From Patescibacteria group bacterium (GTDB taxonomy: Bacteria; Patescibacteriota; Microgenomatia; Levybacterales; UBA12049), in assembly GCA_038063415.1 (NCBI GenBank), contig JBBTVD010000006.1, positions 137,948-201,947 of the forward strand: a DNA stretch of 64,000 nt, written 5' to 3'. Made by a program: the position numbers and the translations under genes. The notes below the pieces were generated by a model. That model was not told the DNA's origin. It worked only from the letters and a program-made list of their open reading frames with translations, and searched no databases. Positions 15,167 to 63,434 of the stretch are shown here, one piece after another (the first letter of the stretch is position 1; each line of letters opens with the position of its first letter).

Positions 15167-15194
15167 GGGAATATTATAGCATGCATAAGCTTCC

Positions 15195-15776: not shown

Positions 15777-15784
15777 AGTTATAT

Positions 15785-16521: not shown

Positions 16522-16961
16522 AACTTTTCTTCAACAATAATTTCTCGTGTAGATTCATCAATTGGGTGAAACGATAACGCAAGATGTTTCTCGGGAAGTA
16601 AGTCTCCAAGTTTTTCCGGCCATTCGATGACGACAATATTTTGGGTATCCTGCATAATGTCAAAGAGCCCAATCTCTTCAATCTCATCGGTATGTTCAAT
16701 CCGGTACAGATCTACATGGTACAAGAATTTCTTTCTGCTTTTACTAGCATCTGGAAGCATGTACGTTCGTATAATAATAAACGTCGGAGAAATAATAGCC
16801 TGGGTGATACCAAGTCCTTGAGCAAAGCCTTGTGTAAAGGTTGTCTTCCCACTACCCAAATCTCCTTGTAAAGTAATTACTTGGAACTGTTCTTTTTGCT
16901 TAGCAATAGTGCGGGCAAGCTCTTGTGTTTCTTGAACATGTTTTGTCGTATAGGTTTTCAT
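16518..16961 (-). CDS. tsaE: tRNA t6A biosynthesis ATPase TsaE (YjeE)
   Basis: ITLQGDLGSGKTTFTQGFAQGLG...SPTFIII...HVDLYRI. Confidence 0.8.
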   Translation of the reverse strand: MKTYTTKHVQETQELARTIAKQKEQFQVITLQGDLGSGKTTFTQGFAQGLGITQAIISPTFIIIRTYMLPDASKSRKKFLYHVDLYRIEHTDEIEEIGLFDIMQDTQNIVVIEWPEKLGDLLPEKHLALSFHPIDESTREIIVEEKL

Positions 16962-36247: not shown

Positions 36248-36892
36248 ATGAACCGCATTAAGGTCTTTATCAGTTACTCGTCTAAGCAAAAAATTATTGG
36301 AGGAAGGTTTAAATACTACCTTAACAATTATTGTGGCTATGAAACTTTTATTGCACACGACGATATTCCGCCATCGTCTATTTTTGAGGAAGAAATATTA
36401 AAAGCAATTGAGAGTACCGATCTCTTTATTCCGCTACTTTCTGATAAATTCAAAACCTCTGACTTTACTGATCAAGAAACAGGAGTCGCAGTAGGTATGA
36501 AAAAGAAAATTTTTCCCATAAAGCTACAAGATCTCAACCCTTATGGCTTTATTAACAAATATCATGCTTTACAATATAAGGAATATCCATCAAATTATTT
36601 TCCCAAGGACAACAGTAAAGAACTTGTTCTAGCGATCGCTCAGGTGTGTTTAAAAAATGAAGTATATCGAAGTAAGGCAATTGACTCGCTCCTTTATGCC
36701 TTTTGTCGAAGCACTTCTTTCGAAATAACAAACACTATTATAGAGCTCCTTTCTCGTCATGATCAGATGACATCAGAACAGCTTGATAAAATTACTACGG
36801 CAATAAAGACTAATGTACAAATTTCTGGAGCATGGGGCTTAGAAGAATTTAAGAAATTCTTACATACTAAGTACAACTGGAGCATTGACTGA
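36248..36892 (+). CDS. TIR-domain protein (stand-alone, TIR + ~85-aa C-terminal helical domain)
   Basis: KVFISYSSKQK N-terminal TIR strand, an FIPLLSDKF...FTDQETGVAV core with a conserved Glu, and a unique C-terminal extension. It is markedly AT-rich relative to flanking genes, divergent from nusA and convergent with the Clp operon. Confidence 0.65.
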   Translation: MNRIKVFISYSSKQKIIGGRFKYYLNNYCGYETFIAHDDIPPSSIFEEEILKAIESTDLFIPLLSDKFKTSDFTDQETGVAVGMKKKIFPIKLQDLNPYGFINKYHALQYKEYPSNYFPKDNSKELVLAIAQVCLKNEVYRSKAIDSLLYAFCRSTSFEITNTIIELLSRHDQMTSEQLDKITTAIKTNVQISGAWGLEEFKKFLHTKYNWSID

Positions 36893-37089: not shown

Positions 37090-39501
37090 CTACTCCACAG
37101 AGATATCCAAAGCACCTGTCCCATTCAAAAAGAAATTAACTTTCTTTCCACGAGTAATATCCTTGGTTAGTGTATGTTGCGCAAGAAGATCCTCGATATT
37201 GTCCTGAATATACCGCCGAAGTGGTCTCGCACCAAAATCCTTATCAAATCCTTCGGAAACTATCTTTTCAATAACCGCCTCATCAAAAGTGACCGCAACA
37301 TCTTGCTCTGCCAAATGCTTTATCAGTTCATTCAGCATCAAATGAACGACTTTTGTTATTTGCTCGGGACCAAGTGGTTTAAAGGTAACCACATCATCAA
37401 ACCGATTGAGAAGCTCAGGTTTGAAAATCCCTTTTGTTTGTAAATACTGTACTAATTTCTGATGAAAAGCCTTATTAAAAGTCGTGCCGTGACTTAACTC
37501 CTCACGGATAAATTCTGAGCCAGCGTTGGAAGTGGCAATAATAATAGCGTTACGAAAAGATACTGTCTCACCTTTGTTGTCAGTCAAACGGCCATCATCA
37601 AGTATCTGTAAAAAGAGGTTATGAATTGCCGGATGTGCTTTCTCAAACTCATCAAGCAAGATAAGTGAGGCGGGATTATCACGTATTTGCTCTGTTAACA
37701 GGCCTCGTTCGCTTCCTTTACCAGGAGGTGAACCGAGAAGCCTTAGCAAGCCTGCTTCATCAGTATACTCACTCATATCAAAACGAATCATGTTTTTCTC
37801 TCCACCAAAGTAGTAACTTGCAAGCGCTTTGGCTGTTTCTGTCTTTCCTACACCAGTTGGCCCCAGAAAAAGGAACGATATTGGCCGCTCTGAGGTCATG
37901 ACACCAGAGCGTATACGACGCATTGCTTCAGCAATAGCGGTTACTGCATACTCTTGATCAATAAGCCGTTCATGAATCTTTTCTTCAAGATGCAGAAGGG
38001 TATTAATTTCTGATTGAGAGGGTGCGGCTATGGCTACATGGACTGTTTGTTCAACTTTTGTAATAACATCTTTCTCAAGTACGATTTTATGGTGCGTTTT
38101 TTCGAAAGTATCTGCATTGTCAGAGAGCGAGACCGTATTTGCCACTGTGCCAAGGAGTGCAATTGCACTTCCCGGAAGCACTTGATCCTGTAGGAATCGA
38201 TCGGCAAGCTCAACCGATGCAACAATTGCCCGATAACTAAGGATTACTTTGTATTTTTTTTCAATGACACTTGCTTCAGCAAGTACCATCTGCATTGTTG
38301 CTTCTTTGTCAGGCTCCTTCATCGGTATAATGGTAAAGGCTTCCTTTAAAGGATTCCTATCCATATAGGCCTTATAGCTACCAGTTGTCATGGTTGCAAT
38401 AATTGGCATATTGCCCGACTGGAGGTAAGGGAGAATAGCCCCTGAAAGATCAAGATTATAGGAAGTTGCGCCGACGATATTTTGAAATTCTGGAATATAA
38501 AGCACCACATCACTGGCATGTGAAAGCTCGCCAATAATAGCCTGTAGACGTACTTCCAAATCACTCCTGGTGGAAGCTCCAGCAGTGAGCGCACCGACAA
38601 GCAGTTGATAAAACTTCTTATAATTGAGGCCACCACCAAGATTACCCTCAAAACTATGATACGCCAAAGCTCGAATCAGATGTTCTTTTCCGACGCCACT
38701 TTCGCCAACAAGCAGTACATTATTACTTTCAAGTCTGAGAATACTCTCAAGCATCGTTTTGAATTCAGCCTCACGCCCTTTGATAAACGGTTCTCCACGA
38801 GTTGCGAGCGAGGTAAAGTCTGCTGTATATTTTTGGGTTTCGGGAGTCCAGCCATCAACTAATGCGTCACCAAACCCTCCCCCTTCAATATGTATTTGTA
38901 TTTTCTTCGGATTTTCTTCTTGAGGGAAAGCTACGCGTGCCCAAGTAACAATACTCACCAAATCCTGGGTTTTTAACTGCTTGGCAAATAATAGCTTGGT
39001 ATCTTTTTCAATCATAAGCAGATACGCAAGGAAAATATCAATCGTTGTTACATAGTTACCACGAAATGTTTTTGCTGTATCAAAAGCACTTTGTGCTAAT
39101 GTCTCACTTTTTAACGGTTCCAAAGGCAGATCTGTATGCGTAATTGTCGTTTTCTGCATAATTGCTTTTATTTGCGGATATTTAATAAGCTTCTGAAGAA
39201 TCTGGGTTGTTGTCTGACCTGTAGCAAAGCCATCAACTGCTTGTAACGTAAATGAATCATAGATTTTTTTACCATCGTTTTTTTCCACAGGAATTGCTGG
39301 TAAAACCCTGCTCACTTTATAATGGAAAAACAGTTCAATCATGACAAAAATATTAAAGAAGAATTGTGGGAGAACAGGAGAGAGACCATTGGTTAGATTA
39401 TAATAAAGAATGTAGACTAACAAGAAAAAGATAAGTAATCGGATACTCCGAAGCAAAGCATTTCTGTACCATTTATATAATTTTGAGTAAAGAACCATCA
39501 T
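37090..39501 (-). CDS. membrane-anchored Clp/Hsp100-family double-AAA+ ATPase (ClpC/ClpA-like)
   Basis: Two N-terminal TM helices, Clp_N-like repeats, NBD1 (LLVGESGVGKEHL) and NBD2 ([17 protein letters not shown]...LLDEFEKAHP...GRLTDNKG...ATSNAGS...GARPLRR). Confidence 0.75.
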   Translation of the reverse strand: MMVLYSKLYKWYRNALLRSIRLLIFFLLVYILYYNLTNGLSPVLPQFFFNIFVMIELFFHYKVSRVLPAIPVEKNDGKKIYDSFTLQAVDGFATGQTTTQILQKLIKYPQIKAIMQKTTITHTDLPLEPLKSETLAQSAFDTAKTFRGNYVTTIDIFLAYLLMIEKDTKLLFAKQLKTQDLVSIVTWARVAFPQEENPKKIQIHIEGGGFGDALVDGWTPETQKYTADFTSLATRGEPFIKGREAEFKTMLESILRLESNNVLLVGESGVGKEHLIRALAYHSFEGNLGGGLNYKKFYQLLVGALTAGASTRSDLEVRLQAIIGELSHASDVVLYIPEFQNIVGATSYNLDLSGAILPYLQSGNMPIIATMTTGSYKAYMDRNPLKEAFTIIPMKEPDKEATMQMVLAEASVIEKKYKVILSYRAIVASVELADRFLQDQVLPGSAIALLGTVANTVSLSDNADTFEKTHHKIVLEKDVITKVEQTVHVAIAAPSQSEINTLLHLEEKIHERLIDQEYAVTAIAEAMRRIRSGVMTSERPISFLFLGPTGVGKTETAKALASYYFGGEKNMIRFDMSEYTDEAGLLRLLGSPPGKGSERGLLTEQIRDNPASLILLDEFEKAHPAIHNLFLQILDDGRLTDNKGETVSFRNAIIIATSNAGSEFIREELSHGTTFNKAFHQKLVQYLQTKGIFKPELLNRFDDVVTFKPLGPEQITKVVHLMLNELIKHLAEQDVAVTFDEAVIEKIVSEGFDKDFGARPLRRYIQDNIEDLLAQHTLTKDITRGKKVNFFLNGTGALDISVE

Positions 39502-39503
39502 TG

Positions 39504-39881
39504 TTATAAAAATAATAACGCTAGTGTCAAAATAGGAAAGGCAAGAAAGCTGACAAAGATAATTGCTTCAAAAGTAAGGAGCATCAAGAACAGAACAACT
39601 TCAATTGGAATAAGCATTGTTTTGAGGGTAATTCCCATGGCTCTTGAGAAACCTACGAGGCCTTCACGATATTCATTTTTCAAAGGTTTGAAAAACGTTT
39701 TAATAAAGAGCGGTAAAGAAAATATTCGTAAAAACGCATCATTCACTGACCGCAAAAAGACAAACAATCCAACAGGAGCTTCTACATACCAAAAATGTAA
39801 AAAATGAAAAGGAAGAAAAGTATATTGTTTCATAGGGCAGCGTGTTGTTCTTAGTATAAAAAGTATGGGTGCAAAATACAA
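39504..39881 (-). CDS. small polytopic membrane protein (125 aa, ~4 TM)
   Basis: Hydrophobic. Its stop overlaps the start of the downstream Clp gene by 4 nt (ATGA), consistent with operon membership. Confidence 0.4.
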   Translation of the reverse strand: MYFAPILFILRTTRCPMKQYTFLPFHFLHFWYVEAPVGLFVFLRSVNDAFLRIFSLPLFIKTFFKPLKNEYREGLVGFSRAMGITLKTMLIPIEVVLFLMLLTFEAIIFVSFLAFPILTLALLFL

Positions 39882-39896
39882 CCTAACGAACCAGTA

Positions 39897-41588
39897 CTAG
39901 TATCCAAGCAGAGAAAATAGCTTCTGTAAAAACGATAGAATAAGCGACAAAAGTTTATAGACTAATCCTTTTTGACTTTCTTGCCCATCTGATTGCATAG
40001 TTTTGTTGGGATGATCAGAAGGAATGACCGTCATAACATCTGAAGGAGATACTGTTTGGAGAGACACGACAGGTGAAAGTGAAGCATCTTCTATTGGAGC
40101 TGTGGGGGTTAAGGATGGAGGATGGGTAGTAAGCGTTAGACATCCCCCAAGGCAATACATAAAACTCGTAGGAGTTGCTGAGGCTTCTGTTGTTGAAGGA
40201 GATGGATCACTGTAGCCTACTGCTTTTGCGGCGTTTATCCGTCCTGCTTGCCAAAACGTTCCTGTTCCTTCAATGTGATCAGCCGTCGCGTATAACCGCT
40301 GCACAACGTGGGTATTGGATCCACCATAAGCGGAATCCCATACCAATGCAGCAATGCCACTTACAAGAGGTGCGGCCATTGATGTCCCGGAAAGATAATC
40401 ATAGTTTGTTTGAAGAGACAAAACATTTTGCATACCAAAGGCGTGCGTGGGGAAAGTCGAATAACTATTTTCTCCAGGTGCGGATATTTGAACCCATGAA
40501 CCATGATTGGAAAAAATTGCTTTTTGATCAAGATTATTGGTTGCAGCAACAGACATAACATTGGTTAATGCTCCCGGATAAAATTTGGTAGTATTTCCCT
40601 GATTACCCACCGCAGCAACAACGAGCGATCCCTTTTCCCAAGCATAGGCTACTGCATCGGACTGTACTTGGGTAAAATCATTACCACCAAGGCTAATGTT
40701 AATAATATGTGCACCATTATCGACAGCCCAAATAATACCTTCCGCAACGACTGCCGTATCACTCATGCCATCGTCTCCGACTGTCTTTGCAATCAGTAAT
40801 TGACAACGAGGACAAGCGCCGGCAATACCTCGCTCGTTATTTGTCTTAGCAGCAATAACCCCTGCGACATGTGTCCCATGACCATATTTATCGTCAACCG
40901 TATTGGTAATAAAATTCTTCTGAGCAATCACTTGTGAGGCAATGTCTGGGTGCGTCAGATCAATGCCCGTATCAAGTACAGCAATCTTAATCCCCTCTCC
41001 TTGACTCACATCCCAAGCAGCAGTAATTTGGACATCGGCATGAGCGAGACCACTTTTCCCCTTTATTGTTTGGGCAGTATTCAGTAACCCCCATTGATTT
41101 CTAAAATAGGTATCATTGGGGATCATCTGAATCTGTTGTCGATAATTTTGCTCTACATAAGCAAGTAATTCCGACGCAAGAAGTGCATCCTCAAGCATTG
41201 TCTCTTGTTCTTCTGGAACGGAAATGACATAGGTGGAGAGGGCTGGAATTTTTTTCTCAATCTTGGCATTGTATCTTGTCAGCAAATCAGTCAATTGCGC
41301 TTCAGTAACACTCTCCTTTACCCGAATGACAAGTTGTCCCGCGATAGCGGTATTTTCTTTAGTTGATGATGGAACAATATTGACTACTGCATTTTGGTCA
41401 GGCATTTCGGAAGGACCAATTGTCGGAGAAGGACTTAAGGGGGAAGTATTGTTTGTAAAATAAGAAAAATAAAAAAATACACCAAGCAGGATAAAAAAGG
41501 TAATAAGTATTATGGGGATATGCAGGTTTGTTTTTTTACGAAGCTGCTCCGGAAGAGCCTCTGGAGGAAGCACTGAATGTTCTGACAT
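39897..41588 (-). CDS. membrane-anchored subtilisin-like serine protease (peptidase S8)
   Basis: N-terminal TM, propeptide-like region, catalytic triad contexts VLDTGID, HGTHVAGVIAA and GTSMAAPLVSG, plus a Ser/Thr/Pro-rich C-terminal tail. Confidence 0.8.
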   Translation of the reverse strand: MSEHSVLPPEALPEQLRKKTNLHIPIILITFFILLGVFFYFSYFTNNTSPLSPSPTIGPSEMPDQNAVVNIVPSSTKENTAIAGQLVIRVKESVTEAQLTDLLTRYNAKIEKKIPALSTYVISVPEEQETMLEDALLASELLAYVEQNYRQQIQMIPNDTYFRNQWGLLNTAQTIKGKSGLAHADVQITAAWDVSQGEGIKIAVLDTGIDLTHPDIASQVIAQKNFITNTVDDKYGHGTHVAGVIAAKTNNERGIAGACPRCQLLIAKTVGDDGMSDTAVVAEGIIWAVDNGAHIINISLGGNDFTQVQSDAVAYAWEKGSLVVAAVGNQGNTTKFYPGALTNVMSVAATNNLDQKAIFSNHGSWVQISAPGENSYSTFPTHAFGMQNVLSLQTNYDYLSGTSMAAPLVSGIAALVWDSAYGGSNTHVVQRLYATADHIEGTGTFWQAGRINAAKAVGYSDPSPSTTEASATPTSFMYCLGGCLTLTTHPPSLTPTAPIEDASLSPVVSLQTVSPSDVMTVIPSDHPNKTMQSDGQESQKGLVYKLLSLILSFLQKLFSLLGY

Positions 41589-41631
41589 ATCTTAAGCCTA
41601 CGAGAACCGTCTGCGTCTGTCAAGCCATAGA

Positions 41632-44600
41632 CTATTGCTGCGGCTGTAATGCTGCTCCGTTGATGTCAACGGGAGTAACAGCAGGAGCTGCTTGCTGTGG
41701 TTGTTGAAATGGAGTAGCAACCGGTGGTTGGAACACTGGCGTTGTTGGCTGCTCTGGCATGGCTGGCATCTGTGGGACTGTCCCAGATGCCGCCAATGAG
41801 TCAACCGTCACAACAGTAGGAATTTGAATAATTGGGTTCACCATTGCTGGTTGCTGAGCAATTTGCTCAAAAGGTGCTGGGTTTACCGAAGCGGGAGCAA
41901 TCGGGGCAGCAACCGCTGGAGCCTCTGTCCTCCCAAATGTACCTGCAACTGCATCAAGGATGAGCAACCCTACCATATCATTCTGTATTTTTGCTTGCTC
42001 CAATTGTTGTTTAAGCTGTGTAAGCTCTTCATTGGTCGTAGCCTCGGTTATAGCAAGCACCATAGCCGCAAGCTTATTGCTATTTTCGGCTTCATGGGAT
42101 ATCTTTGCCTGCAAGTCCGTGTATTGTGTTCTTTCTGCCTCTGATGCTGCTGCTATCGGATTAATCAACAGGTTCAGTGTTTGGCGAAGATCATTGACAT
42201 CAGCATTCTTTAGTTCCTCCGCAACTGCTGTAAGGATTTCTATTGCCAATGGATCTCCGTTTTTCTTTGCCAATTCTAGTTTGTTATATACATCTTGAAT
42301 ATCTGCATCTGAAGTAATATCAGTAATGGCCAATATTGCAGCTGCAAGTTGATGATTTTGTTTGCTGGCTTCCGTAATTTTCTCATTAAGCTGGCTAAAC
42401 TTCGCTTTATTCTCAGGAGAGGCCAGATAGAGTGGATTACTTAGTTGCCTAAAGATTTTTTTGTATTGAGAACCAGGATTGGCTGTTTTTGACTGAGCTG
42501 AGTCCGCTACCATTGCATTGACAGCTGCAAGCACATCTGTCGCGAATTCACTCCCCTGATTTTTTGCTTGCTCCAAATCATGCATCAGTGTCTCAATTAT
42601 CTGTGGTGGAGTGGCATCATTTACCGCCATGATGCTCACTGCAAGTTGATTTTGCTGTTGCTGTTCGGCAAGCAGTCGCTCATGAAGTGCAACAAACTTT
42701 TCTTTTTCTACCGGAGAGGTAACGGTAGCTGGATTAATAATCTGTAACAACACTTTCTTAAAGGTTGTCGCTGTTTGGATTTGCTTTGCAACACTATTTG
42801 CCAAATCCAACAATTCAATCGCAAAAGCATCCCCTTTCTTCTTTGCATCTTCAAGATCTTTACGAATCTTTTGAATCTCAGTGGTTGAAGAGGTTGAATT
42901 TACTGACAAAATTGCTGTAGCTGTCCCGTTGCCTCCAGTACTTGCTTGAACACATTTATCATGGAGTGCACTAAATTTCATTTTTTCTTCTGCATCCGTA
43001 ATACTTTCAGGCTGGGCAACTTTTTGAAGGACTTCTTTGAATTGTTCATCAGTTAGTACAATTGCCGTCTCTGAAGAAGTATCTTTGACGAAAACAAACT
43101 CGTTGGTATCAGTACTGTAATCGATAACGATCGTATCTCCAACAACAAATTTCTTCCCAATAATAGCAAGCGCAATTGGATTCTCTATGGCAGTTTGAAT
43201 CAGACGGCGAAGTGGACGTGCCCCATAGACAGGATCATAGCCATCCTTAGCAAGCTGTGCCACTGCTTTTTCGGTAATCTGGAGAGTATACCCTTCTTCT
43301 TTTAAAAGCTTTGCTGTCTTTGCAATTTCGAGACGGACAATGCCTGCCATATGCTCTGGTCGAAGTGGCTTAAAGATAACTACCTCATCAAAACGATTCA
43401 GCACCTCAGGACGAAGGAACTTCGTCAGCTCTTCTTTTACGATTTTTTGTAGATCCGTAAACTGTTTGTTGAGCTGTTCTGCTGTTGGCTTTGCTTGTGC
43501 ATCAATTGCACTGAGTTGTTGCTGAATGAGTGAACTTCCAATGTTGGAAGTACAAATCACAATGGTATTTTTGAAGGAAATAGTATTCCCTTTGTTATCT
43601 GTCAATCGACCATCCTCAAGAAGTTGCAAGAGGATATTGAAGACATCAGGATGTGCTTTTTCGATTTCGTCCATAAGCACAATTGAATAGGGTTTCTTTC
43701 GGACAGCTTCAGTCAGTACCCCACCTTCTTCATAACCGACATATCCGGGAGGAGCACCAATAAGTTTGGCGACTTCGTGTTTTTCCATGTACTCAGACAT
43801 ATCAAGCCGAGCCATCGCATCATCACGTCCAAAAAGTAATTCAGCTAAGGTCTTGGCAAGTTCTGTTTTACCAACACCAGTAGGTCCAAGGAAGATAAAC
43901 GAAGCAATTGGCCGCTTACCAGAAGCAAGACCAATTCGACCACGTCTGACAGCTTCAGAGACGGCACTTACCGCTTCTTCTTGATCAATCAATCGTTGGT
44001 GAATACGGTCCTCAAGTTTGAGCAATTTTTCACTTTCATCTTCAGTAAGTTTGGTAATCGGGATACCTGTCCATGCACTCACCACTTTTTCGATATCTGA
44101 CTTTTTGATTTGATTATCACCACGTTTCCCTCCATCCATTTGCAATTTGACTTCAGAAGAGGCTTCATCAAGTAAATCGACCGCTTTGTCAGGGAGATAT
44201 CGCTCACCGATATATTTCTTAGAAAGCTTGACACATTCCTTAAGCGCATCGTCAGGGATGGTTACATGATGGAATTTCTCATATTTAGGACGGATAACTT
44301 TGAGCATCTCAACGGCATTTTCTTCACTTGGTTCTTCAGCAGTTACTGGCTGGAAGCGTCGCTCAAAAGCTTTATCTTTTTCAAAATTTTTACGATACTC
44401 AGTCGTCGTGGTCGCTCCAATTAATTGAAAATGTCCACGAGCCAGATGTGGCTTGATGATATTGGCAGCACTCATACCTTCGTCACCACCAGCACCCATC
44501 AAGGTATGAATTTCATCAATGAAGAGAACGATTTTATTATTTGCACCAAGCACTTCGTTAATTACTCCTCGAAGTCTTTCTTCAAACTCTCCCCGGTGAC

Positions 44601-45621
44601 TTGCGCCAGCAACAAGGGAAGCTACATCAAGTTGAAAAATTCGTTTGTCTTGCAAATCTTTTGGTATTTTCCCATTTACAATCATTTGAGCGAGCCCTTC
44701 AACAATAGCAGTCTTTCCAACACCCGTCTCACCAATAATGATTGGGTTATTTTTGGTTCTTCGAAGAAGGATGTGGACAATACGGTCGACTTCCTTTTCG
44801 CGTCCAGCAACAGGATCAAGCCGTCCGGCTCGAGCCTCTTCTGTCAAATCAAGACCATATTTTTCAAGAATGGTCTTGTGACTATAGTTTGCTTTTGGAT
44901 TTTTTGATAGCTTATCAACAATAGCTTCTTTTTTGAGCCCCTTCTTTTGCAAATAAGCTCCTGTCGTATAGGTGGGAGAAGAAAGCACAATCAAAAGATC
45001 TTCAGGAGAAATAAAATTTGACCCACGCATCTTTGCATCGCGATATGCCTGATCAAAAACTTCTTGAGCAGTTTTGCTCAGAACTGGTTGTTCTTTAAAC
45101 GTACCCATTTTTTCGGCAGCTTGTACTTCTTTTGATAATGCCCCCCCATCTTGTTGAAAATCAGCTAGTAACTGGTAAATCTGCTGATCGTAAAGCAATC
45201 CAATAAGCAATTGATCAGGCTCTATAAACTGTTGTTTGATCCTTTTTGTCTCTTCCTGCGCATGTGTCAGTACTTGTGAAGTACGTGGATCTAAGTGACT
45301 AAGCGCTGAGACATCCGACGTAACGGGAGTCCCAGTATCCACATTGGAGGTTGAGACAGGAGTAGTTACTGCCGCAGGATCAGTTGTAGGTACTATGGTA
45401 GGATCGCTCGTTACAGTAGGATCAGTAGCGGACGGAGATGTGGGATCGCTTGCACTTGTTGAGGACGAAACAACTGGGGTTTGCGCCTGTGAAGGTGATG
45501 CCGTAGGTGCAGCAGAAGGCGGTGCTACTGGCTGTTGAGATTGATCCACTGGAGCTGCCGCTGTTGAATCAGCAGATGGATCATCTTTCCCTTTTTTTTG
45601 ATTGAAAATTCCTCCAAACAT
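41632..45621 (-). CDS. giant (1329 aa) Clp/Hsp100-family double-AAA+ ATPase with N-terminal Pro/Ser/Thr-rich region, Clp_N domain, and C-terminal ~370-aa array of ~72-aa repeats plus Pro/Gln-rich tail
   Basis: NBD1 ([18 protein letters not shown]...LFIDEIHTL), a short ClpA/C-type linker, and NBD2 ([17 protein letters not shown]...[14 protein letters not shown]...GRLTDNKG...CTSNIGS...GARPLRR). The C-terminal repeats read [LV]LQ.IxNPAxVTSPxEKEKFxxLHxxL...LAxxIxAxxDxT...IxxLxxxLExAKxxGxxxA. The same repeat family occurs in the adjacent membrane protein. Confidence 0.8.
41930..43040 (-). repeat. array of about five ~72-aa protein repeats (approximate DNA span) within the AAA+ ATPase gene
   Basis: Seen in the translation. 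Example unit: [78 protein letters not shown]. Confidence 0.6.
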
Positions 45622-45673
45622 AGGCAGTACTAGTACTATTAAATACTAATTTCAGAAAAAGGGCAAGGCCTTT

Positions 45674-48600
45674 TTACTCTTCACTTTTCATTTCTTTTTG
45701 CTCTTTTGTGCCTTGCTGAGCAGGAACGCTTATTTTTTGTTCTTCCTCGTTGGTCATTGCTTTGAGTACTGTTTCTGCTGCTTCACGTTTTGTTTGTAAA
45801 TAAGCAATAATTTCATTGAAAGAGAAGCCGCCCAGCAACAGGAATGGTAGAATATCGGTTACTTTTTTCATCCCTTCTTCTTTCTTTTCTTTCTCGGGTG
45901 AAACCAGTAAGTTAACCGTATCAGTCATTTGCTGCATATCGGCTTTTATCCAATCCATTCTTCCCTTATCATCTTCTGTATAACCTTGAGGAACAAGCAG
46001 TTTTTGATAGTTTTCTTCCCACATCTTCTTTACTTCTGTGTATTCTTCATTATTAACTTGTTGTGTTGTGTTTACCGAGGTGAGAAGGGCACTCCCCATA
46101 CTACCAAGAACTTTTGCCGCGATAGGATCATTATTTTTCTTTGCTTCTTGCAGTTGATCAAAAAGCTTTTGTATGTCTTGAGCAGGAGCCGTTTCTTTTA
46201 CCACCAATACTTGGGTGGCCGTAGCATTTCCATCAGTACTTGCCTTTGTTAGTTCATCGTGTAATTTGGTAAAGTATGCTTTGTCGGCATCAGACGAAAG
46301 TTTTTCGGGATGATTGATATGATCCAACACCTTTCGCAACTCTTTAAGAGTAACTACTTGATCAAGGACATTTACCACCTGTGTAGCAATTGGACTTCCT
46401 TGTTGTTTCTCAGAAGCAAGTTTTCCTTTTAATGTTTCAATATCGGCAACGGAGGTCTGATCACTCACTGCAAGAACCTGTGTCGCAAGTTCATTCTTCG
46501 ACTCGCTTTCTTTGACAAGGAATTCGTGTAGCCGTGTATAGAAGTCTCTCTCCGCCTCAACAGGAACTTTTGTAGGATCAGCAATTTGTACGAGTACGTT
46601 TTTTAGTTCTGCGAGTGTTAGTGCAAGCATTTCAACTTCTCCACTCAGATTCTGAGCTGCAGAAAGGATCGCACCAGCGGTGATATCTCCTTTTTGCCCA
46701 GCAAGCACCAAGCGTTCTCGTAATGCTTCATATTTTTCTCGTTCAGGACTCGCTGTTAGTTGCATTGGATTTGCAATATGGGTAAGTATCTCCTTTGCTT
46801 TAGCAACTCCCTCTTGCTGCGTTTTATCTCGTGAGAGTAGACGAGTTTCATACCGCGCAATATCACGCATTTTCGGGATCTTTAAATCAACGATGTTCAT
46901 AATGTCATTTGAAATAGTAGGAGTAACAACGGTTGTTTTGCTTATACCACTTGCTAACAAGCTCTCATCACCTTCCTCGGTACCGCTTGCAACTGAAGCT
47001 GAGTTACTTGCTGAGGGCTCATCCATAGTAGCAGCCATGGTTGCTTGATTTTCAGCTTTCCTCGTCGTGACGGTAACTTTCTCTTCCTCATCTTGCACAA
47101 GTGCAACGGATATCTCTTTGGCAGCATCTTGTTTTGCCTTCAGATATCCGACAACTTCTGTCTGAGAAAATCCTCCGACAAGAAGAAAAGGAAGAATGTC
47201 AGAGACTTCTTGCATTCCTTGATTAACGACATCAGGATCAGCAGCGGTAAGCATACCGACGATTTCATCTATCTTTGCGATATCATCACGAATCCATTCA
47301 CTTCTATTACCAGCCATGCCTTCTGGTACTTCAAGGTTTTGGTAATTCTCTTTCCACATATCCTTAATGGCCTTGTAATCCTGTTGGCTAACGTTCTGCA
47401 CTCGATTAACTGAGGGGAGAGAGACTCGGGCAGCTGTTTCTCCAACCTTAGCAAGCTCGGTCGCAATAGGCTCTCCCTTCTCTTTTGCCTGAAGAATTTT
47501 CTCTTGAAGTTTCTCAATATCTGCAGTTGAAGTTTTTTCTGTCATACCAAGAATTGATCCTGCAAGCTCATTTCCTTCTTTACTTGCTTTAGACAATGAA
47601 TCTTTAAGTTTAGTAAGTCTCTCTTTTTCAACAGGAGAGACTGCCACTGCTGGATTAGCAATTTGCTGAAGGACACTACGCACTTGCTCGGTTGATTGCA
47701 CTTGTTTGACTGACGAATCAATTGTTGACAAAACAGAGGATGCAACACTGTTCTCTTTGGCTTGCATAATCTGATTTTGAATCTTCTCAATCTCTACTGT
47801 TGAGGTTTTATCGGTAACCGAAAGGATAGAGGTTGCAAGCTGATTATTATTCTCTTTACTTTCCTTAGAAAGGGTATCATGAAGCTTAGTCATTTTTTCC
47901 CGATCAGCAACATTGGTAATAGAGGCTGGATTGGCAATTTGTTGTAGGACTGTTTGCATTTGAGCTGTACTTACTTGTTGCTTCTGTCCCCCTGAAATCG
48001 TATTCATAACACTCACCGCAACCTCCTGCTGTTTTGCCTGCATCAATGTATCTCGGATTTTTTCTACCTCTTTTGCCGAAGTGTTTTCATTTACGGACAA
48101 AATGGACGAAGCAAGGGCATTGTTATTCTCCTTACTTTCCTTAGAAAGCATTTGATTAAGCTTTGTCATCCGCTCTCGATCTACAATATTATTTACTGAA
48201 GCTGGATTTGCAATCTGTTGTAGCACATTTTTAATTTGACTATTGGTTGCCATTGATTGCGACATTGTACTTGCAGCATTCAAGATAGATGCTGCCATAT
48301 TATTCCCTTGCTGAGTCTCTTTACGTAATCGATCACGGAGCTGATTATATTGTTGTCTATCTGTTGTTGCTGTCACTGCCATAGGATTGGCAATACGTTC
48401 AAGTTTTTCTCGTACTTGTGTAACTTCTTGACGTTGACTTGCATCCTTTGATAAGAGTGCCGTTTCATATTTAGCAATATCACGCATAGAAGGAAGAGAA
48501 AGATTTGCTACATTTAATATTTGTGCATTTGCTTGCGAAATAGGCATGACACGAGGCTGGCTTGCAGACATTGTCGCAGGGGTAGTTTCATAGACAATCT

Positions 48601-49951
48601 CTTTTGCTTCACCAGCTGGCTGCAAGCCCTTTGGAATATTAAATTTCTTTGCAAAAGGGATACTCATGGCAATTCCGGCATCACCAGGAGGAGTTGGTGC
48701 AGGAGGCTGCCCACCAGGAGTGATAGGAGTTCTATTTGCCGTTGCTAGATTAACAAGGGTTTTCATGACGGCACTATCACCAGGAGCGAAATTAGCAGCA
48801 TAATCAAGAAATATCTGCAAGAGGATCCATGGCAATAAAATAACCACCCATAACATAATAAGCGCAACCACATAGAGCGCGAATGTTTCAGTTAGGTTCA
48901 CACTGTTCGTTGGCGTTACCAACTGCTGTGGACCACCAAGAAGGATATTGACCGCTGTTGGATAAATGATTTGATCAGCCTGATTGATACCTGGATTATT
49001 AAAGATGAGCGGGACACCGCCGCCTCCCTGTCCAGCAGCCCCTGCATTATCACTTTGCCATCGCCACATAGAGACGAGTCCTTTTAAGAATATAGCAAAC
49101 AGTGGTGCATAGAGTAACCATCGGAAGAATTCACCAATCCAGATTTTCCCTGTGTTCCGAGTAGGATAATACAAAAGAAGCAATGGGAAAATTGGTGAAA
49201 CAATAATAAAGAACCAAAGAATAATCTTACGCATGAGTAAAATTCCAACCATGACAAAATAGGTCAGAGCAGTAAGTTTTGTTAATAAAAGAGAGATAAA
49301 AGCGGATTCAGCATTGTAATCGCCTAAGAGCCTAAGGCCAACAAAATTTCGATAATCCCATCCCACATACAATAAATCTGCTTGAGAGATACAGTTGGGT
49401 GGACAAGAGAGGTCGCTTTGGTCATCTGATTTTAGGAAGAAGCCTTGGATAAGATCAGTAAACTGATAAAAGAACTGTAAAATAGAATAGGAAAAGACAA
49501 TAAGCAAAATAACAGCCACAAAACGAGGAATGAACCGCATAATAGTGAGACTCCGCCCCCGAGTAATGATGATGACAAGCGCTGTAGCAAGAATGACAAA
49601 AAAGAGTAAAGGCACAACAATACTAATAACAATGAGTGACCAGAATTGAGCAAGTGGATTATCACTATTATCACAAACACGTGCCTGGTTTTCTGTAGGA
49701 GCTTGCGTTTCAGTCACACAAACCCAGTTATAGTTTTGTAGGGTCCAATCAAGCATGTTTCCAGCTCTCGCAGCATTTTTTCCAATGAAGGTTACCTCTG
49801 GATCAACGACCCAATAAGCCCCTGTTGGCTGAGGATTTACCTCCTCATCGACAGCATAAGCAGGAGAAGAAAAGGATAAAGCTCCAATAAAAAGGACAGC
49901 TATAACTATAAACGGAACAAAAAAACGAAAATTGGGCAGTAATTTTTTCAT
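45674..49951 (-). CDS. giant (1425 aa) signal-peptide + ~6-TM membrane protein (VirB6/TrbL-like topology suspected) with a ~1000-aa C-terminal domain built from the same ~72-aa repeats, arranged as a two-fold tandem super-repeat
   Basis: Signal peptide MKKLLPNFRFFVPFIVIAVLFIGALSFSSPAYA, Cys-containing extracytoplasmic segments, six hydrophobic helices and a Gly-rich loop. The repeats read VLQQIANPASxxNxxDREKMTKLHDTLSKESKENNNxLAxSILSVxxKTSxxEIEKIxxxIMQAKE. Two super-repeats each end in ...MWxENYQxLxVPxG...DILPFLLxGGFSxxExxxYL. Confidence 0.75.
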   Translation of the reverse strand: MKKLLPNFRFFVPFIVIAVLFIGALSFSSPAYAVDEEVNPQPTGAYWVVDPEVTFIGKNAARAGNMLDWTLQNYNWVCVTETQAPTENQARVCDNSDNPLAQFWSLIVISIVVPLLFFVILATALVIIITRGRSLTIMRFIPRFVAVILLIVFSYSILQFFYQFTDLIQGFFLKSDDQSDLSCPPNCISQADLLYVGWDYRNFVGLRLLGDYNAESAFISLLLTKLTALTYFVMVGILLMRKIILWFFIIVSPIFPLLLLYYPTRNTGKIWIGEFFRWLLYAPLFAIFLKGLVSMWRWQSDNAGAAGQGGGGVPLIFNNPGINQADQIIYPTAVNILLGGPQQLVTPTNSVNLTETFALYVVALIMLWVVILLPWILLQIFLDYAANFAPGDSAVMKTLVNLATANRTPITPGGQPPAPTPPGDAGIAMSIPFAKKFNIPKGLQPAGEAKEIVYETTPATMSASQPRVMPISQANAQILNVANLSLPSMRDIAKYETALLSKDASQRQEVTQVREKLERIANPMAVTATTDRQQYNQLRDRLRKETQQGNNMAASILNAASTMSQSMATNSQIKNVLQQIANPASVNNIVDRERMTKLNQMLSKESKENNNALASSILSVNENTSAKEVEKIRDTLMQAKQQEVAVSVMNTISGGQKQQVSTAQMQTVLQQIANPASITNVADREKMTKLHDTLSKESKENNNQLATSILSVTDKTSTVEIEKIQNQIMQAKENSVASSVLSTIDSSVKQVQSTEQVRSVLQQIANPAVAVSPVEKERLTKLKDSLSKASKEGNELAGSILGMTEKTSTADIEKLQEKILQAKEKGEPIATELAKVGETAARVSLPSVNRVQNVSQQDYKAIKDMWKENYQNLEVPEGMAGNRSEWIRDDIAKIDEIVGMLTAADPDVVNQGMQEVSDILPFLLVGGFSQTEVVGYLKAKQDAAKEISVALVQDEEEKVTVTTRKAENQATMAATMDEPSASNSASVASGTEEGDESLLASGISKTTVVTPTISNDIMNIVDLKIPKMRDIARYETRLLSRDKTQQEGVAKAKEILTHIANPMQLTASPEREKYEALRERLVLAGQKGDITAGAILSAAQNLSGEVEMLALTLAELKNVLVQIADPTKVPVEAERDFYTRLHEFLVKESESKNELATQVLAVSDQTSVADIETLKGKLASEKQQGSPIATQVVNVLDQVVTLKELRKVLDHINHPEKLSSDADKAYFTKLHDELTKASTDGNATATQVLVVKETAPAQDIQKLFDQLQEAKKNNDPIAAKVLGSMGSALLTSVNTTQQVNNEEYTEVKKMWEENYQKLLVPQGYTEDDKGRMDWIKADMQQMTDTVNLLVSPEKEKKEEGMKKVTDILPFLLLGGFSFNEIIAYLQTKREAAETVLKAMTNEEEQKISVPAQQGTKEQKEMKSEE
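45720..48540 (-). repeat. two-fold tandem internal duplication (~1.4 kb each, approximate) inside the giant membrane-protein gene, each copy containing four ~72-aa repeats plus a conserved terminal module
   Basis: Protein segments ~470-960 and ~965-1410 align (IAKYETALLSKD / IARYETRLLSRD starts; DILPFLLVGGFS / DILPFLLLGGFS ends). Confidence 0.55.
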
Positions 49952-49958
49952 AGATCGA

Positions 49959-50255
49959 TTAACTAAAACCAGGTACTTTCAAGATATCAATAAGCACGAC
50001 TTCGATAAACACAAAGCCAAAAATAGCAAGCAGGAGACCGCTAATGGCATAAAAAATATAACTTTTCCCAACACTCACCCGAGCAGGGTTTCCTTTCGAG
50101 GTAAGGATAGCGTACCCACCCAAAATAAGCGCTACCAGTGCTGCCATTGCCACAAAACCAAGCCCTATCCCATAAAAACGTTGCGCAAAACCAATAGGGT
50201 CATTGGGTAAGCAACCAAAATCTGTCTGAATTTCATTGGCGGGACAAGGTACCAT
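49959..50255 (-). CDS. small two-TM protein, pilin-like (VirB2/TrbC-like architecture suspected); first gene of the operon
   Basis: 98 aa. A Cys pair (CPANEIQTDFGC) is followed by two hydrophobic helices separated by a short basic loop (TSKGNPARVSVGKS). It lies 8 nt upstream of the giant membrane protein gene. Confidence 0.4.
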   Translation of the reverse strand: MVPCPANEIQTDFGCLPNDPIGFAQRFYGIGLGFVAMAALVALILGGYAILTSKGNPARVSVGKSYIFYAISGLLLAIFGFVFIEVVLIDILKVPGFS

Positions 50256-50334
50256 ATTTCCACACTAGCATACGAAAAAATGAAAAACAATACTCGTGTT
50301 TTGACAAATAATGGATTTAGACTTATAATTATCT

Positions 50335-53092: not shown

Positions 53093-54271
53093 TTATTGAA
53101 ACATAACCGCCAAAAAAATAATGATCCCGGGAATAATAAATACCCATGGACTTATCTCAGGATAATAGGGTAGAGGGATCGAGGTTGGCGTAGGAGAAGG
53201 TCTAACGGTTCCTCCTCCCCCTCCAGTACCTGCTCCCCAGGTACTATAATCGACTCCTCCGCCAAGTCCATTCGCAGGGCTATTATTTCCAAAGAGTTCA
53301 AGGTATTTTGCTGACGATTGAGGAGCATCAACAGATCCTGCAGCTGGATAAATACCTGAGCCGACATTACCTGGCTCTATAGAGATTGGCGCATTATAGT
53401 AGGCTTCATAAGCAAGAATATCACGATTTTCCATAAATGTTTCAAACATCTTCTCTATATAAAATGGATTATCTCCTCCACCATCAGCACTGCCAACAGC
53501 AACTCCCCATTCTGCGACAGAGAAGAGCTTCCCATGTTCACGGGCAAAATTAATAACATAACATAATCCATTATTGGTATTACACTGGTTATCCCATGCA
53601 GCTTGATCATGACTGGGAGGATAATGATCATAGGAATCAATACCGATGATATCTACATACTCATCTCCAGGGTAGGCATCAAAAGGATTTCCACTTGCTG
53701 GGAAGGGGGAACCGTGTGCATTAAATGTCCAATCAAGAAGCACGTTGGGAGCTGTGGATCTAATTGCCTTTGCCACGTTATTCCAGCAAGTTTTAAAATT
53801 CGTTGGATCAGCATCACTGTGCCAATACATAAAATCTCCATTAAATTCCCAACCAATTCTGATAATAGTACTTGGGGAATTTCGACCAATGCTATCAAGA
53901 TAGCTGCCCGCTTCTTTCCAGTAGTTATCATAAGCGCCACTTGCACACGCAGCATTATTGCCCTGCCCTTGTGGATACATAGCTACGGAGAGTACAAGGA
54001 TACCGTCATAGCTTTTATAATTGAGTCCATCAAAAATATTGGTTGGTTTAGTAAGCGATCCCCATCCAGCATCACGCACATTAAATGAAGCAACAATAAC
54101 ATCCGTGGGATTGCCTCGCCAAGTCCCAAAATCAAGATGGGGCTGGAGTTCATTTGCTGTATGAACACCCGATGCCCACGGTAAATCCGAATTTGGAGCA
54201 GCTTCTATAACTGTCGTTGGGAAAAAAGCAAAGAAAGTAACAAGTAGTAATACAAAAAAGAAGTGTTTCAT
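53093..54271 (-). CDS. secreted glycoside hydrolase, GH26-like (beta-mannanase-type clan GH-A) with Gly-rich linker and C-terminal TM anchor
   Basis: Signal peptide. IIRIGWEFNGDFMYWH is the acid/base motif of GH26 WEFNG type, and SVAEWGVA holds the nucleophile Glu. The C-terminus is GGGGTVRPSPTPTS followed by a TM. Confidence 0.55.
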   Translation of the reverse strand: MKHFFFVLLLVTFFAFFPTTVIEAAPNSDLPWASGVHTANELQPHLDFGTWRGNPTDVIVASFNVRDAGWGSLTKPTNIFDGLNYKSYDGILVLSVAMYPQGQGNNAACASGAYDNYWKEAGSYLDSIGRNSPSTIIRIGWEFNGDFMYWHSDADPTNFKTCWNNVAKAIRSTAPNVLLDWTFNAHGSPFPASGNPFDAYPGDEYVDIIGIDSYDHYPPSHDQAAWDNQCNTNNGLCYVINFAREHGKLFSVAEWGVAVGSADGGGDNPFYIEKMFETFMENRDILAYEAYYNAPISIEPGNVGSGIYPAAGSVDAPQSSAKYLELFGNNSPANGLGGGVDYSTWGAGTGGGGGTVRPSPTPTSIPLPYYPEISPWVFIIPGIIIFLAVMFQ

Positions 54272-54349
54272 ATATCTACTTCTAGACTAAAGGATTTATA
54301 CTGCCCTGTCAAATAAAAATTGAACATAGCATTCCCTTGTTCATCAGTA

Positions 54350-55099
54350 CTATTGCAGACTTTGTGGATTATTAGCAGGTGGATATGTTTGTGTCTGAGA
54401 TTGTCCCCCCTGTTGTTGAATAGTATTATTTACCGCTGGAACTTCAGCGTTTGTTTGCCCTTGCCCTATTATGATTGTTGTACCAGTACTAGATTTTAAG
54501 ACTGATTGTGCCACTCCTCGTGCAGTCACAAGGGTGGTAGGTAACAAGTTAAATTGAGCTTGACTCCCAATTTGCCCCTTTGCGGTAAAAGTAATTGTTG
54601 CAACAGAACCAGTTCCTTTTAATGTAGGTCTATTTGGTGTTATACCGACAGCGTACGTTACTTTACCCTCTTGTGCGTTAACTTTGTTGATTAATACTAC
54701 GGGATTTTCGAATAACGCACCTGGTGTCAATTGCACATTGCTAACAAGTGTAGGATCATACGAAAGCTCCAATTGTACTGCAGTAACATCATTATCCGAA
54801 GTGTCTATTGCAACATCAATTTTCCCTTGTTGTCCTGGTGCAACAGCAAGTGGATTTGGCGAAAGAGAAAGTACCGAATGCGCAGGCACCGACGGTGCTG
54901 GGGTCCCTTGAGCTATTGGGGCAGAAGATGGAACGATTTGAGATTGCTGTTCTTGTTGTTGCCTGTTGGCGTTAAAAGCTACAATAAAAAGAATAATCGT
55001 TACTAATACCAATCCAGAGATAAGGGCAAGCGTTTTCTTCGGCATAATTTTATGATAGACATCTCTTTCGGGTTTTGCAACTAGTACTTTTGATAACAA
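54350..55099 (-). CDS. membrane-anchored cohesin-like domain protein
   Basis: N-terminal signal anchor, then a ~140-aa beta-rich domain (KIDVAIDTSDNDVTAVQLELSYDPTLV...GSVATITFTAKGQ) resembling type-I cohesin modules, then a Gln/Thr-rich tail. Confidence 0.4.
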   Translation of the reverse strand: MLSKVLVAKPERDVYHKIMPKKTLALISGLVLVTIILFIVAFNANRQQQEQQSQIVPSSAPIAQGTPAPSVPAHSVLSLSPNPLAVAPGQQGKIDVAIDTSDNDVTAVQLELSYDPTLVSNVQLTPGALFENPVVLINKVNAQEGKVTYAVGITPNRPTLKGTGSVATITFTAKGQIGSQAQFNLLPTTLVTARGVAQSVLKSSTGTTIIIGQGQTNAEVPAVNNTIQQQGGQSQTQTYPPANNPQSLQ

Positions 55100-62537: not shown

Positions 62538-62540
62538 ATT

Positions 62541-62696
62541 AGATCTTACCTTTAAGTTGATCCATCGCGATTTTGACAGCTCCTTTTAAGAAACTGATAA
62601 TAGCGTAGATAATAAGATTGATAACTTTATAGACAGTCGGCCAAATCTTCTCCAAAATAAGTATTACTTTAGATTTTTGTCCGTTTTCTTCCATAG
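62541..62696 (-). CDS. possible 51-aa small membrane protein whose stop overlaps the deoA-like start (TAATATG)
   Basis: Hand-found ORF MEENGQKSKVILILEKIWPTVYKVINLIIYAIISFLKGAVKIAMDQLKGKI. Confidence 0.2.
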
Positions 62697-63428: not shown

Positions 63429-63434
63429 AGCAGC

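Follow-up and report, generated by a model that had tools for sequence, protein, structure and literature searches.

A conserved gene string of Levybacteria that combines VirB2- and VirB6-type membrane proteins with Clp/Hsp100 ATPases, and its reading as a type IV secretion-like envelope machine

To our knowledge, every type IV secretion system (T4SS) described so far is defined by a motor of the VirB4 family. Analysis of a stretch of 64,000 nucleotides (nt) from a Patescibacteria genome (contig JBBTVD010000006.1 of assembly GCA_038063415.1, positions 137,948 to 201,947; hereafter the window) showed the presence of a string of six genes, g1 to g6, in which two T4SS-type membrane proteins are encoded together with two Clp/Hsp100 ATPases. 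The nearest family-level relatives of this string are the Patescibacteria T4SS related to MPF_FATA (Quinonero-Coronel et al. 2025, PMC12102498) and the archaeal DNA import systems Ced and Ted (Beltran et al. 2023, PMC9905601); VirB4, by which both are recognized, is absent from the locus. The Patescibacteria T4SS and the string share the phylum, chromosomal genes for PF18895 T4SS_pilin and VirB6-like proteins, the lack of a relaxase and a presumed non-conjugative use. These T4SS are, however, defined by VirB4 with TrsD, PrgI/VirB3 and VirB8-like neighbours in the dnaA region, whereas the string has two Clp ATPases, no VirB4 at the locus and a usual location at the heat-shock operon. In the survey of these systems, VirB6 was described as ‘scarce’ near virB4 in Microgenomatia, T4SS genes were given as essential for the epibiotic growth of Saccharimonadia according to a study cited there, and Clp or AAA+ partners were not mentioned (PMC12102498). 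Ced and Ted, similar to the string, represent a domesticated minimal set of a VirB2-like pilin, a VirB6-like protein and one ATPase, and export of Ced pilins apparently involves no cleavage of a signal peptide (PMC9905601), which seems to be true of g1 as well; the motor of Ced and Ted is of the VirB4/HerA type, whereas the candidate motors of the string are Clp/Hsp100 proteins, and no DNA-handling genes are linked to it.

All parts of the string belong to known families, their combination appears undescribed, and several independent lines of evidence point to its function. The best reading, to which we assign a probability of about one half, is a Clp-powered, T4SS-like envelope machine coupling the two T4SS-derived membrane proteins to the two Clp/Hsp100 ATPases. 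Full-text searches of the literature revealed no paper linking Clp/Hsp100 to VirB6/VirB2 in these bacteria, and the combination thus appears undescribed, as was proposed in the preliminary description of this DNA. The six co-directional open reading frames (ORFs) of that description were all found on the minus strand, at the following positions of the window (aa, amino acids; TM, transmembrane):

49959–50255, minus strand: g1, 98 aa, VirB2/T4SS_pilin-type protein
45674–49951, minus strand: g2, whole ORF, 1425 aa
48782–49951, minus strand: N-terminal domain of g2 (aa 1 to about 390), signal/TM1 segment and five-helix membrane domain with the VirB6/TrbL fold
45674–48781, minus strand: predicted cytoplasmic tail of g2 (aa about 390–1425), Pro-rich linker and two tandem modules
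41632–45621, minus strand: g3, 1329 aa, Clp/Hsp100 double-ring ATPase
41980–43032, minus strand: C-terminal extension of g3 (aa 864–1214), four 67-aa repeats
39897–41588, minus strand: g4, 563 aa, predicted membrane-anchored S8 subtilase
39504–39833, minus strand: g5, 109 aa from the ATG at 39833, small membrane protein
39504–39881, minus strand: mechanical ORF of g5, 125 aa from a TTG start at 39881
37090–39501, minus strand: g6, 803 aa, predicted membrane-anchored Clp paralogue

The junctions from g1 to g6 measure, in order, 7, 52, 43, 15 (63 with the ATG start of g5) and 2 nt, the stop codon of g5 lying 2 nt ahead of the ATG of g6. These values replace the gaps of 3–52 nt with two start/stop overlaps given earlier, as no genes overlap. 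The G+C content of g1–g6 resembles that of the flanks.

The protein encoded by g1 has a two-TM hairpin topology, and its family is characterized by a conserved N-terminal motif, CxxxE..TDxGCxPNDPxGF, and a C-terminal PGF. The window protein has no signal peptide, while a cleavable-looking one is present in some orthologues. Taken alone, it gave only sub-threshold matches (DUF6112, E 0.006; the Mbov_0395 pilin-like model, E 4e-4). Of its orthologues, 24 out of 25 match PF18895 T4SS_pilin (best E 2.5e-8) and three match TrbC/VirB2 (PF04956); the search of PDB sequences with the orthologue profile returned only TM-helix noise (adrenergic receptors, cytochrome oxidase). Judged by these family matches, g1 is a VirB2/T4SS_pilin-type protein, which at most may polymerize into a pilus.

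The N-terminus of g2 consists of the signal/TM1 segment and five long membrane helices, according to hydropathy and the AlphaFold2 model, with short positively charged loops on the predicted cytoplasmic side; because of this topology and the positive-inside loops, the tail is most likely cytoplasmic. No Pfam match was found for the window protein. TrbL (PF04610) was matched by 16 of the 26 orthologues scanned at E<=0.05 (best 9.2e-6) and is the sole family recurrent among them, and several homologues in databases carry precomputed PF04610 or PF19590 annotation. The three-dimensional structure predicted for the N-terminal domain is similar to the solved VirB6, TrwI of R388. Accordingly, the VirB2 and VirB6 homology proposed earlier for g1 and g2 holds, as do the two-TM pilin-like nature of the former, supported by the hairpin and by PF18895, and the signal peptide with about six TM helices of the latter.

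g2 is an ‘extended’ VirB6-type platform, the tail of which is composed of 67-aa helical repeats and a conserved end domain. One tail module comprises motif A (‘MRDIAxYET’), the 67-aa ‘IANP’ helical repeats and a C-terminal domain (‘ILPFLLxGGFS...YLKAK’). The window protein carries a duplication of the entire module, the two copies having 4 and 3 repeats and being 33–38% identical: motif A is located at aa 489 and 1028, the core of the C-terminal domain at aa 919 and 1367, and seven copies of the repeat, with a period of about 92 aa, were detected at aa 517–1274 by the repeat hidden Markov model (HMM). The predicted model of the tail is all-helical (predicted local distance difference test score 80), and no informative fold match to it was found in structural comparison. 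Orthologues of g2 contain from 1 to 11 repeat copies, and their length ranges threefold, from about 700 to 2131 aa, because the number of 67-aa repeats has increased and entire tail modules have been duplicated; the tail thus undergoes rapid evolution. No extra pilin or VirB6 paralogues were detected within the 64-kb window by HMM search.

The ATPase g3 contains, in order, a low-complexity N-terminus, Clp_N, D1, D2, D2-small and the C-terminal extension. Its motifs were checked in 65 sequences, namely, the window protein and 64 orthologues. The two rings have intact Walker A and Walker B motifs, and the Arg-finger GARPLRR is likewise intact, as is GYVGY, the pore loop of D2. In the D1 pore loop Tyr is replaced by His in 61 of the 65, the whole loop motif being shared by 59. 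The M-domain is the part of ClpB that mediates cooperation with DnaK. In alignments of g3 with PDB sequences, the M-domain of ClpB (404->526) and of ClpC (389->466) is skipped, while the alignment with ClpA is contiguous; the distance from the end of D1 to the D2 Walker A is 102–104 aa, as in ClpA, in 51 of 55 orthologues, and the M-domain is therefore absent family-wide. The ClpP-docking tripeptide [I/L/V]G[F/L] was not found in the stretch of g3 aligned to ‘FAGFGG’ of S. aureus ClpC, and none is conserved in the orthologues. Thus, g3 is predicted to be a motif-competent double-ring Clp protein with neither M-domain nor ClpP loop, and the domain content and intact motifs bear out its earlier identification as a Clp-type double AAA+ protein.

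The score of g3 is below the NCBIfam equivalog cut-off for each of ClpB, ClpA, ClpV, ClpG and ClpK. Three assignments were rejected: the ClpB/Hsp104 disaggregase (M-domain absent; TIGR03346, 868.5 bits against a cut-off of 1232), the ClpP partner of the ClpA/ClpC type (docking loop absent; ClpA TIGR02639, 708.6 bits against 993) and ClpV/TssH of the type VI secretion system (T6SS), with 658.8 bits against 885 for TIGR03345 and no T6SS families among the scanned ORFs of the window.

The repeats of the g3 C-terminus are the same 67-aa repeat as in the g2 tail, with E values of 1e-25 to 1e-30 per copy in the repeat HMM; in tblastn, the g2 tail matches the g3 C-terminus with E of about 1e-36 and 33% identity over 275 aa. 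The distribution of the repeat was followed in related loci, collected by a scan with the g2 alignment over one genome per species (GTDB r232). The best 80 of 152 stretches and three more found by exact protein look-ups gave 83 loci, almost all of them from Levybacteria/Microgenomatia. In these loci the repeat is present in every g2, in g3 (2–5 copies) only in the subclade nearest to the window, and in no other ORF.

The core of g3 was also compared by HMMER search with 1.84 billion representatives, clustered at 50% identity. Tens of thousands of Clp proteins were found, and only about ten clusters stand above the generic ClpB/ClpC plateau. They have the same His/Lys pore-loop variant as g3 (xHRGEFEER), and g3 therefore descends from a wider Clp clade of the candidate phyla radiation (CPR); a coiled coil of about 70 aa resembling the M-domain is present in some of the clusters and absent from others. 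In five of the seven nearest clusters outside the 83 loci, a T4SS-type membrane gene adjoins the Clp gene:

L087: full string, including hrcA–dnaJ genes, around the Clp gene
L092: g2-like gene directly upstream of the Clp gene
L090: g2-like gene convergent with the Clp gene, past an inserted transposase
L089: T4SS_pilin gene directly downstream of the Clp gene
L091 (Gottesmanbacteria): PrgI/VirB3-like gene divergently adjacent to the Clp gene
L086: Clp gene without a T4SS neighbour
L088: Clp gene without a T4SS neighbour

At L086, the Clp protein itself (P0249, positions 10001–12493, 830 aa) is fused C-terminally to a complete g2 tail, with leading motif, repeat and end domain. Since the link recurs with different parts and orientations and in two independent fusions, it represents the strongest evidence that Clp and T4SS-derived proteins work together. 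P0249 has a degenerate Walker B in both rings and lies in an unrelated neighbourhood beside a thiamine ABC transporter.

Presence of the genes in the 83 loci was scored by tblastn of each part, the denominators being the loci where it could be judged. g1 is located immediately upstream of g2 in 76 of 81 loci and g3 downstream of g2 in 66 of 68; the pair g5–g6 is present in 42 of 53 and adjacent in all 42 loci that have it. Dozens of species-level genomes have the genes in the same order, far more than chance would account for, and the string is a chromosomal, vertically inherited gene set of the ultra-small, uncultured Levybacteria (Microgenomatia, Patescibacteria). The co-conservation of six genes supposed earlier is accordingly retained for g1–g2, g3 and g5–g6; as a fixed six-gene membership it is not, since the S8 protease is present in only 18 of 53 loci. 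Many of the related metagenome-assembled genomes (MAGs; among L010–L083) are recorded under the title ‘uncultured Gammaproteobacteria bacterium’, and these names look like placeholders or errors; the genomes were placed with Levybacteria because of gene content (a CPR-type dnaK operon and T4SS_pilin) and sequence similarity.

In related genomes the string is normally appended to the heat-shock operon, a setting overlooked in the preliminary description and one that opens a proteostasis reading. Genes hrcA-grpE-dnaK(-dnaJ) lie directly upstream on the same strand in 55 of the 59 loci with enough upstream sequence, and the median distance from the dnaJ stop codon to g1 is about 80 nt. A repeat of the controlling inverted repeat of chaperone expression (CIRCE) type, TTrGCAsTC-N9-TAnTGCTAA, was found 26–200 nt upstream of hrcA in 50 loci (L001–L084) and never before g1 in the related loci. 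It is a lineage-specific CIRCE variant, the second arm being TA(C/T/G)TGCTAA instead of GAGTGCTAA. Downstream of g6, genes nusA-infB are present in many loci, the window included. The dnaK operon is absent from the window, and a CIRCE search there with the canonical and the lineage consensus (<=3 mismatches) gave no match. Compared with its kin, the window was rearranged, the breakpoint falling precisely at the border of dnaJ and g1, with g1–g6 and the nusA-infB flank intact; the intact string at this breakpoint argues for g1–g6 behaving as a unit. Given its usual position at the heat-shock operon, a role of the string in proteostasis must be taken seriously.

The small protein g5 has a conserved motif, FKPLKNEYRxGLVGFS, and no match in Pfam, NCBIfam or PADLOC. 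Its 49 orthologues are 105–112 aa long, and the start codon is therefore most likely the ATG at 39833. Two clear TM helices are present at the C-terminus, with one or two weaker hydrophobic stretches at the N-terminus; of the small 4-TM protein proposed earlier, the small membrane protein stands and the number of four helices is uncertain.

The motifs of g6 were checked in 40 sequences (window protein and 39 orthologues). A two-TM hairpin at the N-terminus is conserved, followed by a partial Clp N-domain. D1 is degenerate, with Walker A ‘GxxGxGK[ES]’, Walker B ‘IPEF/IPDF’ or similar and no pore-loop aromatic residue. In D2 the Walker A and B motifs and the Arg finger are intact, and the pore loop, ‘GSPPGKGSERG’, is acidic and glycine-rich and has no aromatic residue. 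The score against ClpA (TIGR02639) is 430.3 bits, with a cut-off of 993, and no conserved ClpP-docking tripeptide was found in the 40 sequences; thus, the ClpP-binding loop, raised as a point to check in both ATPases, is carried by neither g3 nor g6. g6 is predicted to be a membrane-anchored Clp paralogue with a dead D1, so that only its architecture is that of a double AAA+ protein. Without pore-loop aromatics and with D1 dead, g6 is improbable as a classical threading unfoldase. The preliminary description of g6 as a Clp double AAA+ protein with two N-terminal TM helices was correct in the hairpin and the architecture and did not account for the degenerate D1; the term ‘two unfoldases’ overstates g6. 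The NCBI record of a 100%-identical protein (P0121) starts 53 codons downstream (750 aa) and loses the two-TM hairpin, and several orthologues are likewise annotated at 737–750 aa, which is probably a recurrent mis-annotation of the start site.

The protease g4 has an N-terminal signal anchor (TM helix at aa 19–46), a fervidolysin-type prodomain (PF22148) and a peptidase domain matching PF00082 with 178.7 bits against a cut-off of 21.8; the catalytic triad D206 (DTG), H237 (HGTH) and S403 (GTSMA) is intact. It is predicted to be an active, membrane-anchored S8 protease, in line with the membrane-anchored S8 protease named earlier. Mycosin is the best NCBIfam model for g4; its assignment as a mycosin of the type VII secretion system was rejected (TIGR03921, 212.6 bits against 278.75; anchor N-terminal; no Ecc genes). 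The S8 protease is not a fixed member of the string, contrary to the preliminary description: in the related loci the slot between g3 and g5 is empty or contains S8, an M4 thermolysin-like protease (once with M28) or an uncharacterized family of 620–660 aa. The slot proteins share a scaffold of N-terminal signal anchor and SdrD_B Ig-like domain, and dnaJ is sometimes located in the slot, between the protease and g5. At two loci, L026 and L061, a g2-like gene is followed by two S8 genes, with no g1 or g3; the protease link may therefore be to g2 and not to the ATPases. Genes for YceG, a pyrimidine-nucleoside phosphorylase and a sortase at the right end of the window (60302–63983) show synteny with L026 (compared over 2242–16756), in its left part; about 5 kb further, L026 has a g2-like paralogue (1126 aa, 4 repeats) and then two S8 subtilases. 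A second VirB6-like locus may therefore sit just past the end of the window.

Genes for VirB4, VirB11 and VirD4 are absent from the six genes, from the 10 nearest flanking ORFs and from the 20 other scanned ORFs of the window, and PNPase is the only other window ORF long enough for VirB4. The locus therefore does not encode VirB4 together with the membrane components, which is the mark of a canonical T4SS. The same absence was reported before and is borne out by the ORF list and a partial Pfam scan; it holds for the locus and not necessarily for the genome. In the rows available from a published census, VirB4 is scored as present in 20 of 44 counted Levybacteria assemblies and was not detected in 24, for which incompleteness of the MAGs is a possible cause; nearly all Magasanikbacteria and Kaiserbacteria rows have it (PMC12102498). 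Among the genomes bearing the string, L043 and L044 are given there as ‘No’ and L057 as ‘Yes’ (PMC12102498). These data are suggestive of an independence of the string from VirB4 and are no proof of it.

Downstream of g6 the window contains the housekeeping genes nusA, infB, rpsO and pnp; upstream of g1 lie an adenosine deaminase gene on the opposite strand and then recX and recA. Between g6 and nusA, on the opposite strand, a TIR-domain protein of 214 aa is encoded (36248–36892, plus strand; PF13676, E 1.7e-12, with a weak ThsB-like PADLOC match). This gene is present in none of the 83 related loci and looks like a recent insertion, possibly of a defence gene. For the string itself, assignment as an anti-phage defence system was rejected: PADLOC gave only generic AAA_2-core (PDC-M37B, DolB) and subtilase-core matches, and none for g1, g2 and g5. 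A scan for promoters and terminators over 36–51.5 kb gave counts at the level of shuffled sequence. The adenosine deaminase gene, with its ATG at 50335, is preceded by a perfect sigma-70 consensus (12/12; TTGACA, 17 nt, TATAAT) at 50301–50329 on the plus strand, the end of which lies 5 nt before this ATG; a transcript from it would run divergently from g1 and have no leader or almost none. Further away, positions 3363–14805 are occupied by a sugar-nucleotide and glycosylation block, probably for synthesis of a cell-surface glycan, with PMT_2, GT2/GtrA glycosyltransferases, three genes of the GDP-mannose-dehydratase/epimerase type, UDP-glucose dehydrogenase and an RmlD-like reductase. Near the string, at 53093–55099 and 62697–63428, lie genes of surface-protein machinery, the products being a sortase and proteins of the GH26-like and cohesin-domain types.

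As a Clp-powered, T4SS-like envelope machine, the string could operate as follows. The tail of the VirB6-type protein g2 would be a docking scaffold for the g3 hexamer, via the shared repeats or the g3 N-domain, and g3 would supply the mechanical work done by VirB4 in canonical systems, either pulling the pilin from the membrane for assembly on VirB6 or unfolding a protein substrate and pushing it toward a VirB6 conduit. A substrate would enter g3 at the N-domain/D1 face and exit toward the membrane platform; the position of the docking repeats at the D2 (exit) end of g3 fits such a delivery of pilin or cargo to VirB6. g5 and g6 may tether or regulate at the membrane, or g6 may join mixed rings, a role as motor being less likely. 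The outer protease may act on exported, pilus or host-surface proteins. Expression would be expected to rise with heat-shock or host-contact stress, following the HrcA regulon in most relatives. In its fullest form, this would be an unrecognized class of machine, in which a VirB2 pilin and an extended VirB6 are driven by a ClpP-independent, M-domain-less Hsp100 instead of VirB4, with an anchored pseudo-Clp as tether or regulator and control by HrcA, and which serves a pilus or the transfer of unfolded protein to or from a host; this extended version is offered tentatively.

Several observations weigh against a Clp-powered machine. Located behind hrcA-grpE-dnaK-dnaJ at a median distance of about 80 nt, g3 is placed where a heat-shock gene would be expected, and inheritance by itself can maintain a conserved gene order in a single order-level lineage. 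Only one subclade has repeats fused to the C-terminus of g3, no T4SS neighbour is present at L086 and L088 among the seven nearest Clp clusters, and g3, coming from the wider CPR Clp clade, may simply be the general chaperone of the lineage. g6 lacks the pore-loop aromatics needed for threading, and the slot proteases carry Sec-type signal anchors, so that there is no need to regard them as cargo. VirB4 is present in about half of the Levybacteria assemblies counted in the available census rows, so g1 and g2 could serve an ordinary T4SS.

It is possible, though less probable, that the genes of the string are neighbours and not partners. In that case the Clp genes, and perhaps those of the proteases, would be ordinary parts of the heat-shock/proteostasis regulon: g3 would be a cytosolic chaperone of the ClpB/ClpC type, g5 and g6 would take part in membrane quality control, g1 and g2 would serve a normal T4SS with VirB4 encoded elsewhere, for example near dnaA, and the shared unit would reflect co-regulation or accident. 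The co-directional heat-shock genes upstream of the string in 55 of 59 loci, with the short gap and a CIRCE-like operator only before hrcA, speak for this reading, and dnaJ is at times embedded between the protease and g5. g3 shares its His/Lys pore-loop variant with the wider CPR Clp clade to which it belongs, which is consistent with a chaperone, and VirB4 is scored in 20 of the 44 assemblies in those census rows, the L057 genome included; the ‘scarce’ VirB6 near virB4 in Microgenomatia would fit a VirB6 encoded elsewhere (PMC12102498). However, with neither M-domain nor ClpP loop, g3 does not match either of the usual chaperone types. Fusions join the g2 repeat to g3 and an entire g2 tail to another Clp protein, and T4SS membrane genes adjoin Clp genes in divergent lineages, in varied orientations and with varied components. 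In addition, the string has stayed intact in the window after separation from the dnaK operon, and no VirB4 was detected in 24 of the 44 assemblies in the same rows.

An unlikely alternative is a module of membrane quality control or disassembly, in which Clp rings extract, recycle or retract the pilin, VirB6 or other membrane proteins under stress, and the outer proteases clear damaged surface proteins. The link to the heat-shock operon and the non-homologous slot proteases on one shared scaffold suit such a module, and the N-terminal anchor of g6 would point the entry face of the ring at the membrane, a geometry like that of FtsH. Precedents are ClpV in T6SS and ClpB in the Francisella T6SS, and the process may be likened to extraction of the FtsH/Msp1 type. 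On the other hand, g6, without pore-loop aromatics and with a dead D1, is poorly equipped for extraction, the ATPases have no ClpP-docking loop, no protease domain lies on the cytoplasmic side, and the repeats at the D2 exit end of g3 would fit delivery to VirB6 better than removal. It is very improbable that the string is left over from a mobile element (integrative conjugative element or conjugative plasmid), is an anti-phage defence island or came together by chance: VirB2/VirB6 genes usually travel on conjugative elements, a TIR-domain gene adjoins g6 and PADLOC matches AAA+ and subtilase domains, but the string occupies the same chromosomal position, from the dnaK operon to nusA-infB, in dozens of species, its G+C is like that of the flanks, relaxase, integrase, VirD4 and VirB4 are absent from the locus, and none of the 83 related loci has the TIR gene.

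With the Clp-powered envelope machine retained as the best reading, the string may be compared with other systems that use Clp or AAA+ ATPases. ClpI of Actinomycetota (Jiang and Schmitz 2023, PMC10149685) shows that variant Clp proteins exist outside the ClpA/B/C scheme, some of them without the ClpP-binding motif. However, ClpI has an M-domain of ClpC length, its motifs are intact, and neither membrane nor T4SS genes are linked to it, whereas g3 has no M-domain and g6 is anchored and has a dead D1. In ESX/type VII secretion (MycP, EccA), similar to the string, a membrane-anchored subtilase is encoded with an AAA+ ATPase and polytopic membrane proteins; in contrast, the string lacks the EccC/FtsK ATPase, EccB/D/E and a WXG substrate, and its protease is dispensable in most related loci. 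ClpV/TssH in T6SS and ClpB in the Francisella T6SS are Clp/Hsp100 proteins acting at a secretion apparatus without a ClpP partner, but ClpV/TssH recycles a cytoplasmic sheath and is not placed at a VirB6 platform, and T6SS genes are absent from the string.

Patescibacteria depend on host cells, and the locus supplies, in at least Levybacteria, the VirB6 found to be ‘scarce’ and ties it to the stress regulon. As the VirB6 tail shares its repeat with the C-terminus of the Clp protein, a concrete hypothesis of interaction between the two can be put forward. In function the string would most resemble systems in which an Hsp100 ring was recruited to a secretion structure, such as ClpV or ClpB in T6SS and PTEX of Plasmodium (PMC6550532), without being a member of either. 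PTEX is composed of HSP101, EXP2 and PTEX150; a ClpB-like Hsp100 is docked there on a membrane pore for unfolding and export, and HSP101 (PDB 6e10/6e11) is among the sequence relatives of g3, with E 2e-145. PTEX is, however, eukaryotic, its EXP2 is unrelated to VirB6 and HSP101 keeps the M-domain, so that the likeness would be functional only. If the preferred reading is true, the string would represent a VirB2/VirB6 core re-powered by Hsp100 unfoldases, a bacterial counterpart to the Hsp100-plus-pore design of PTEX.

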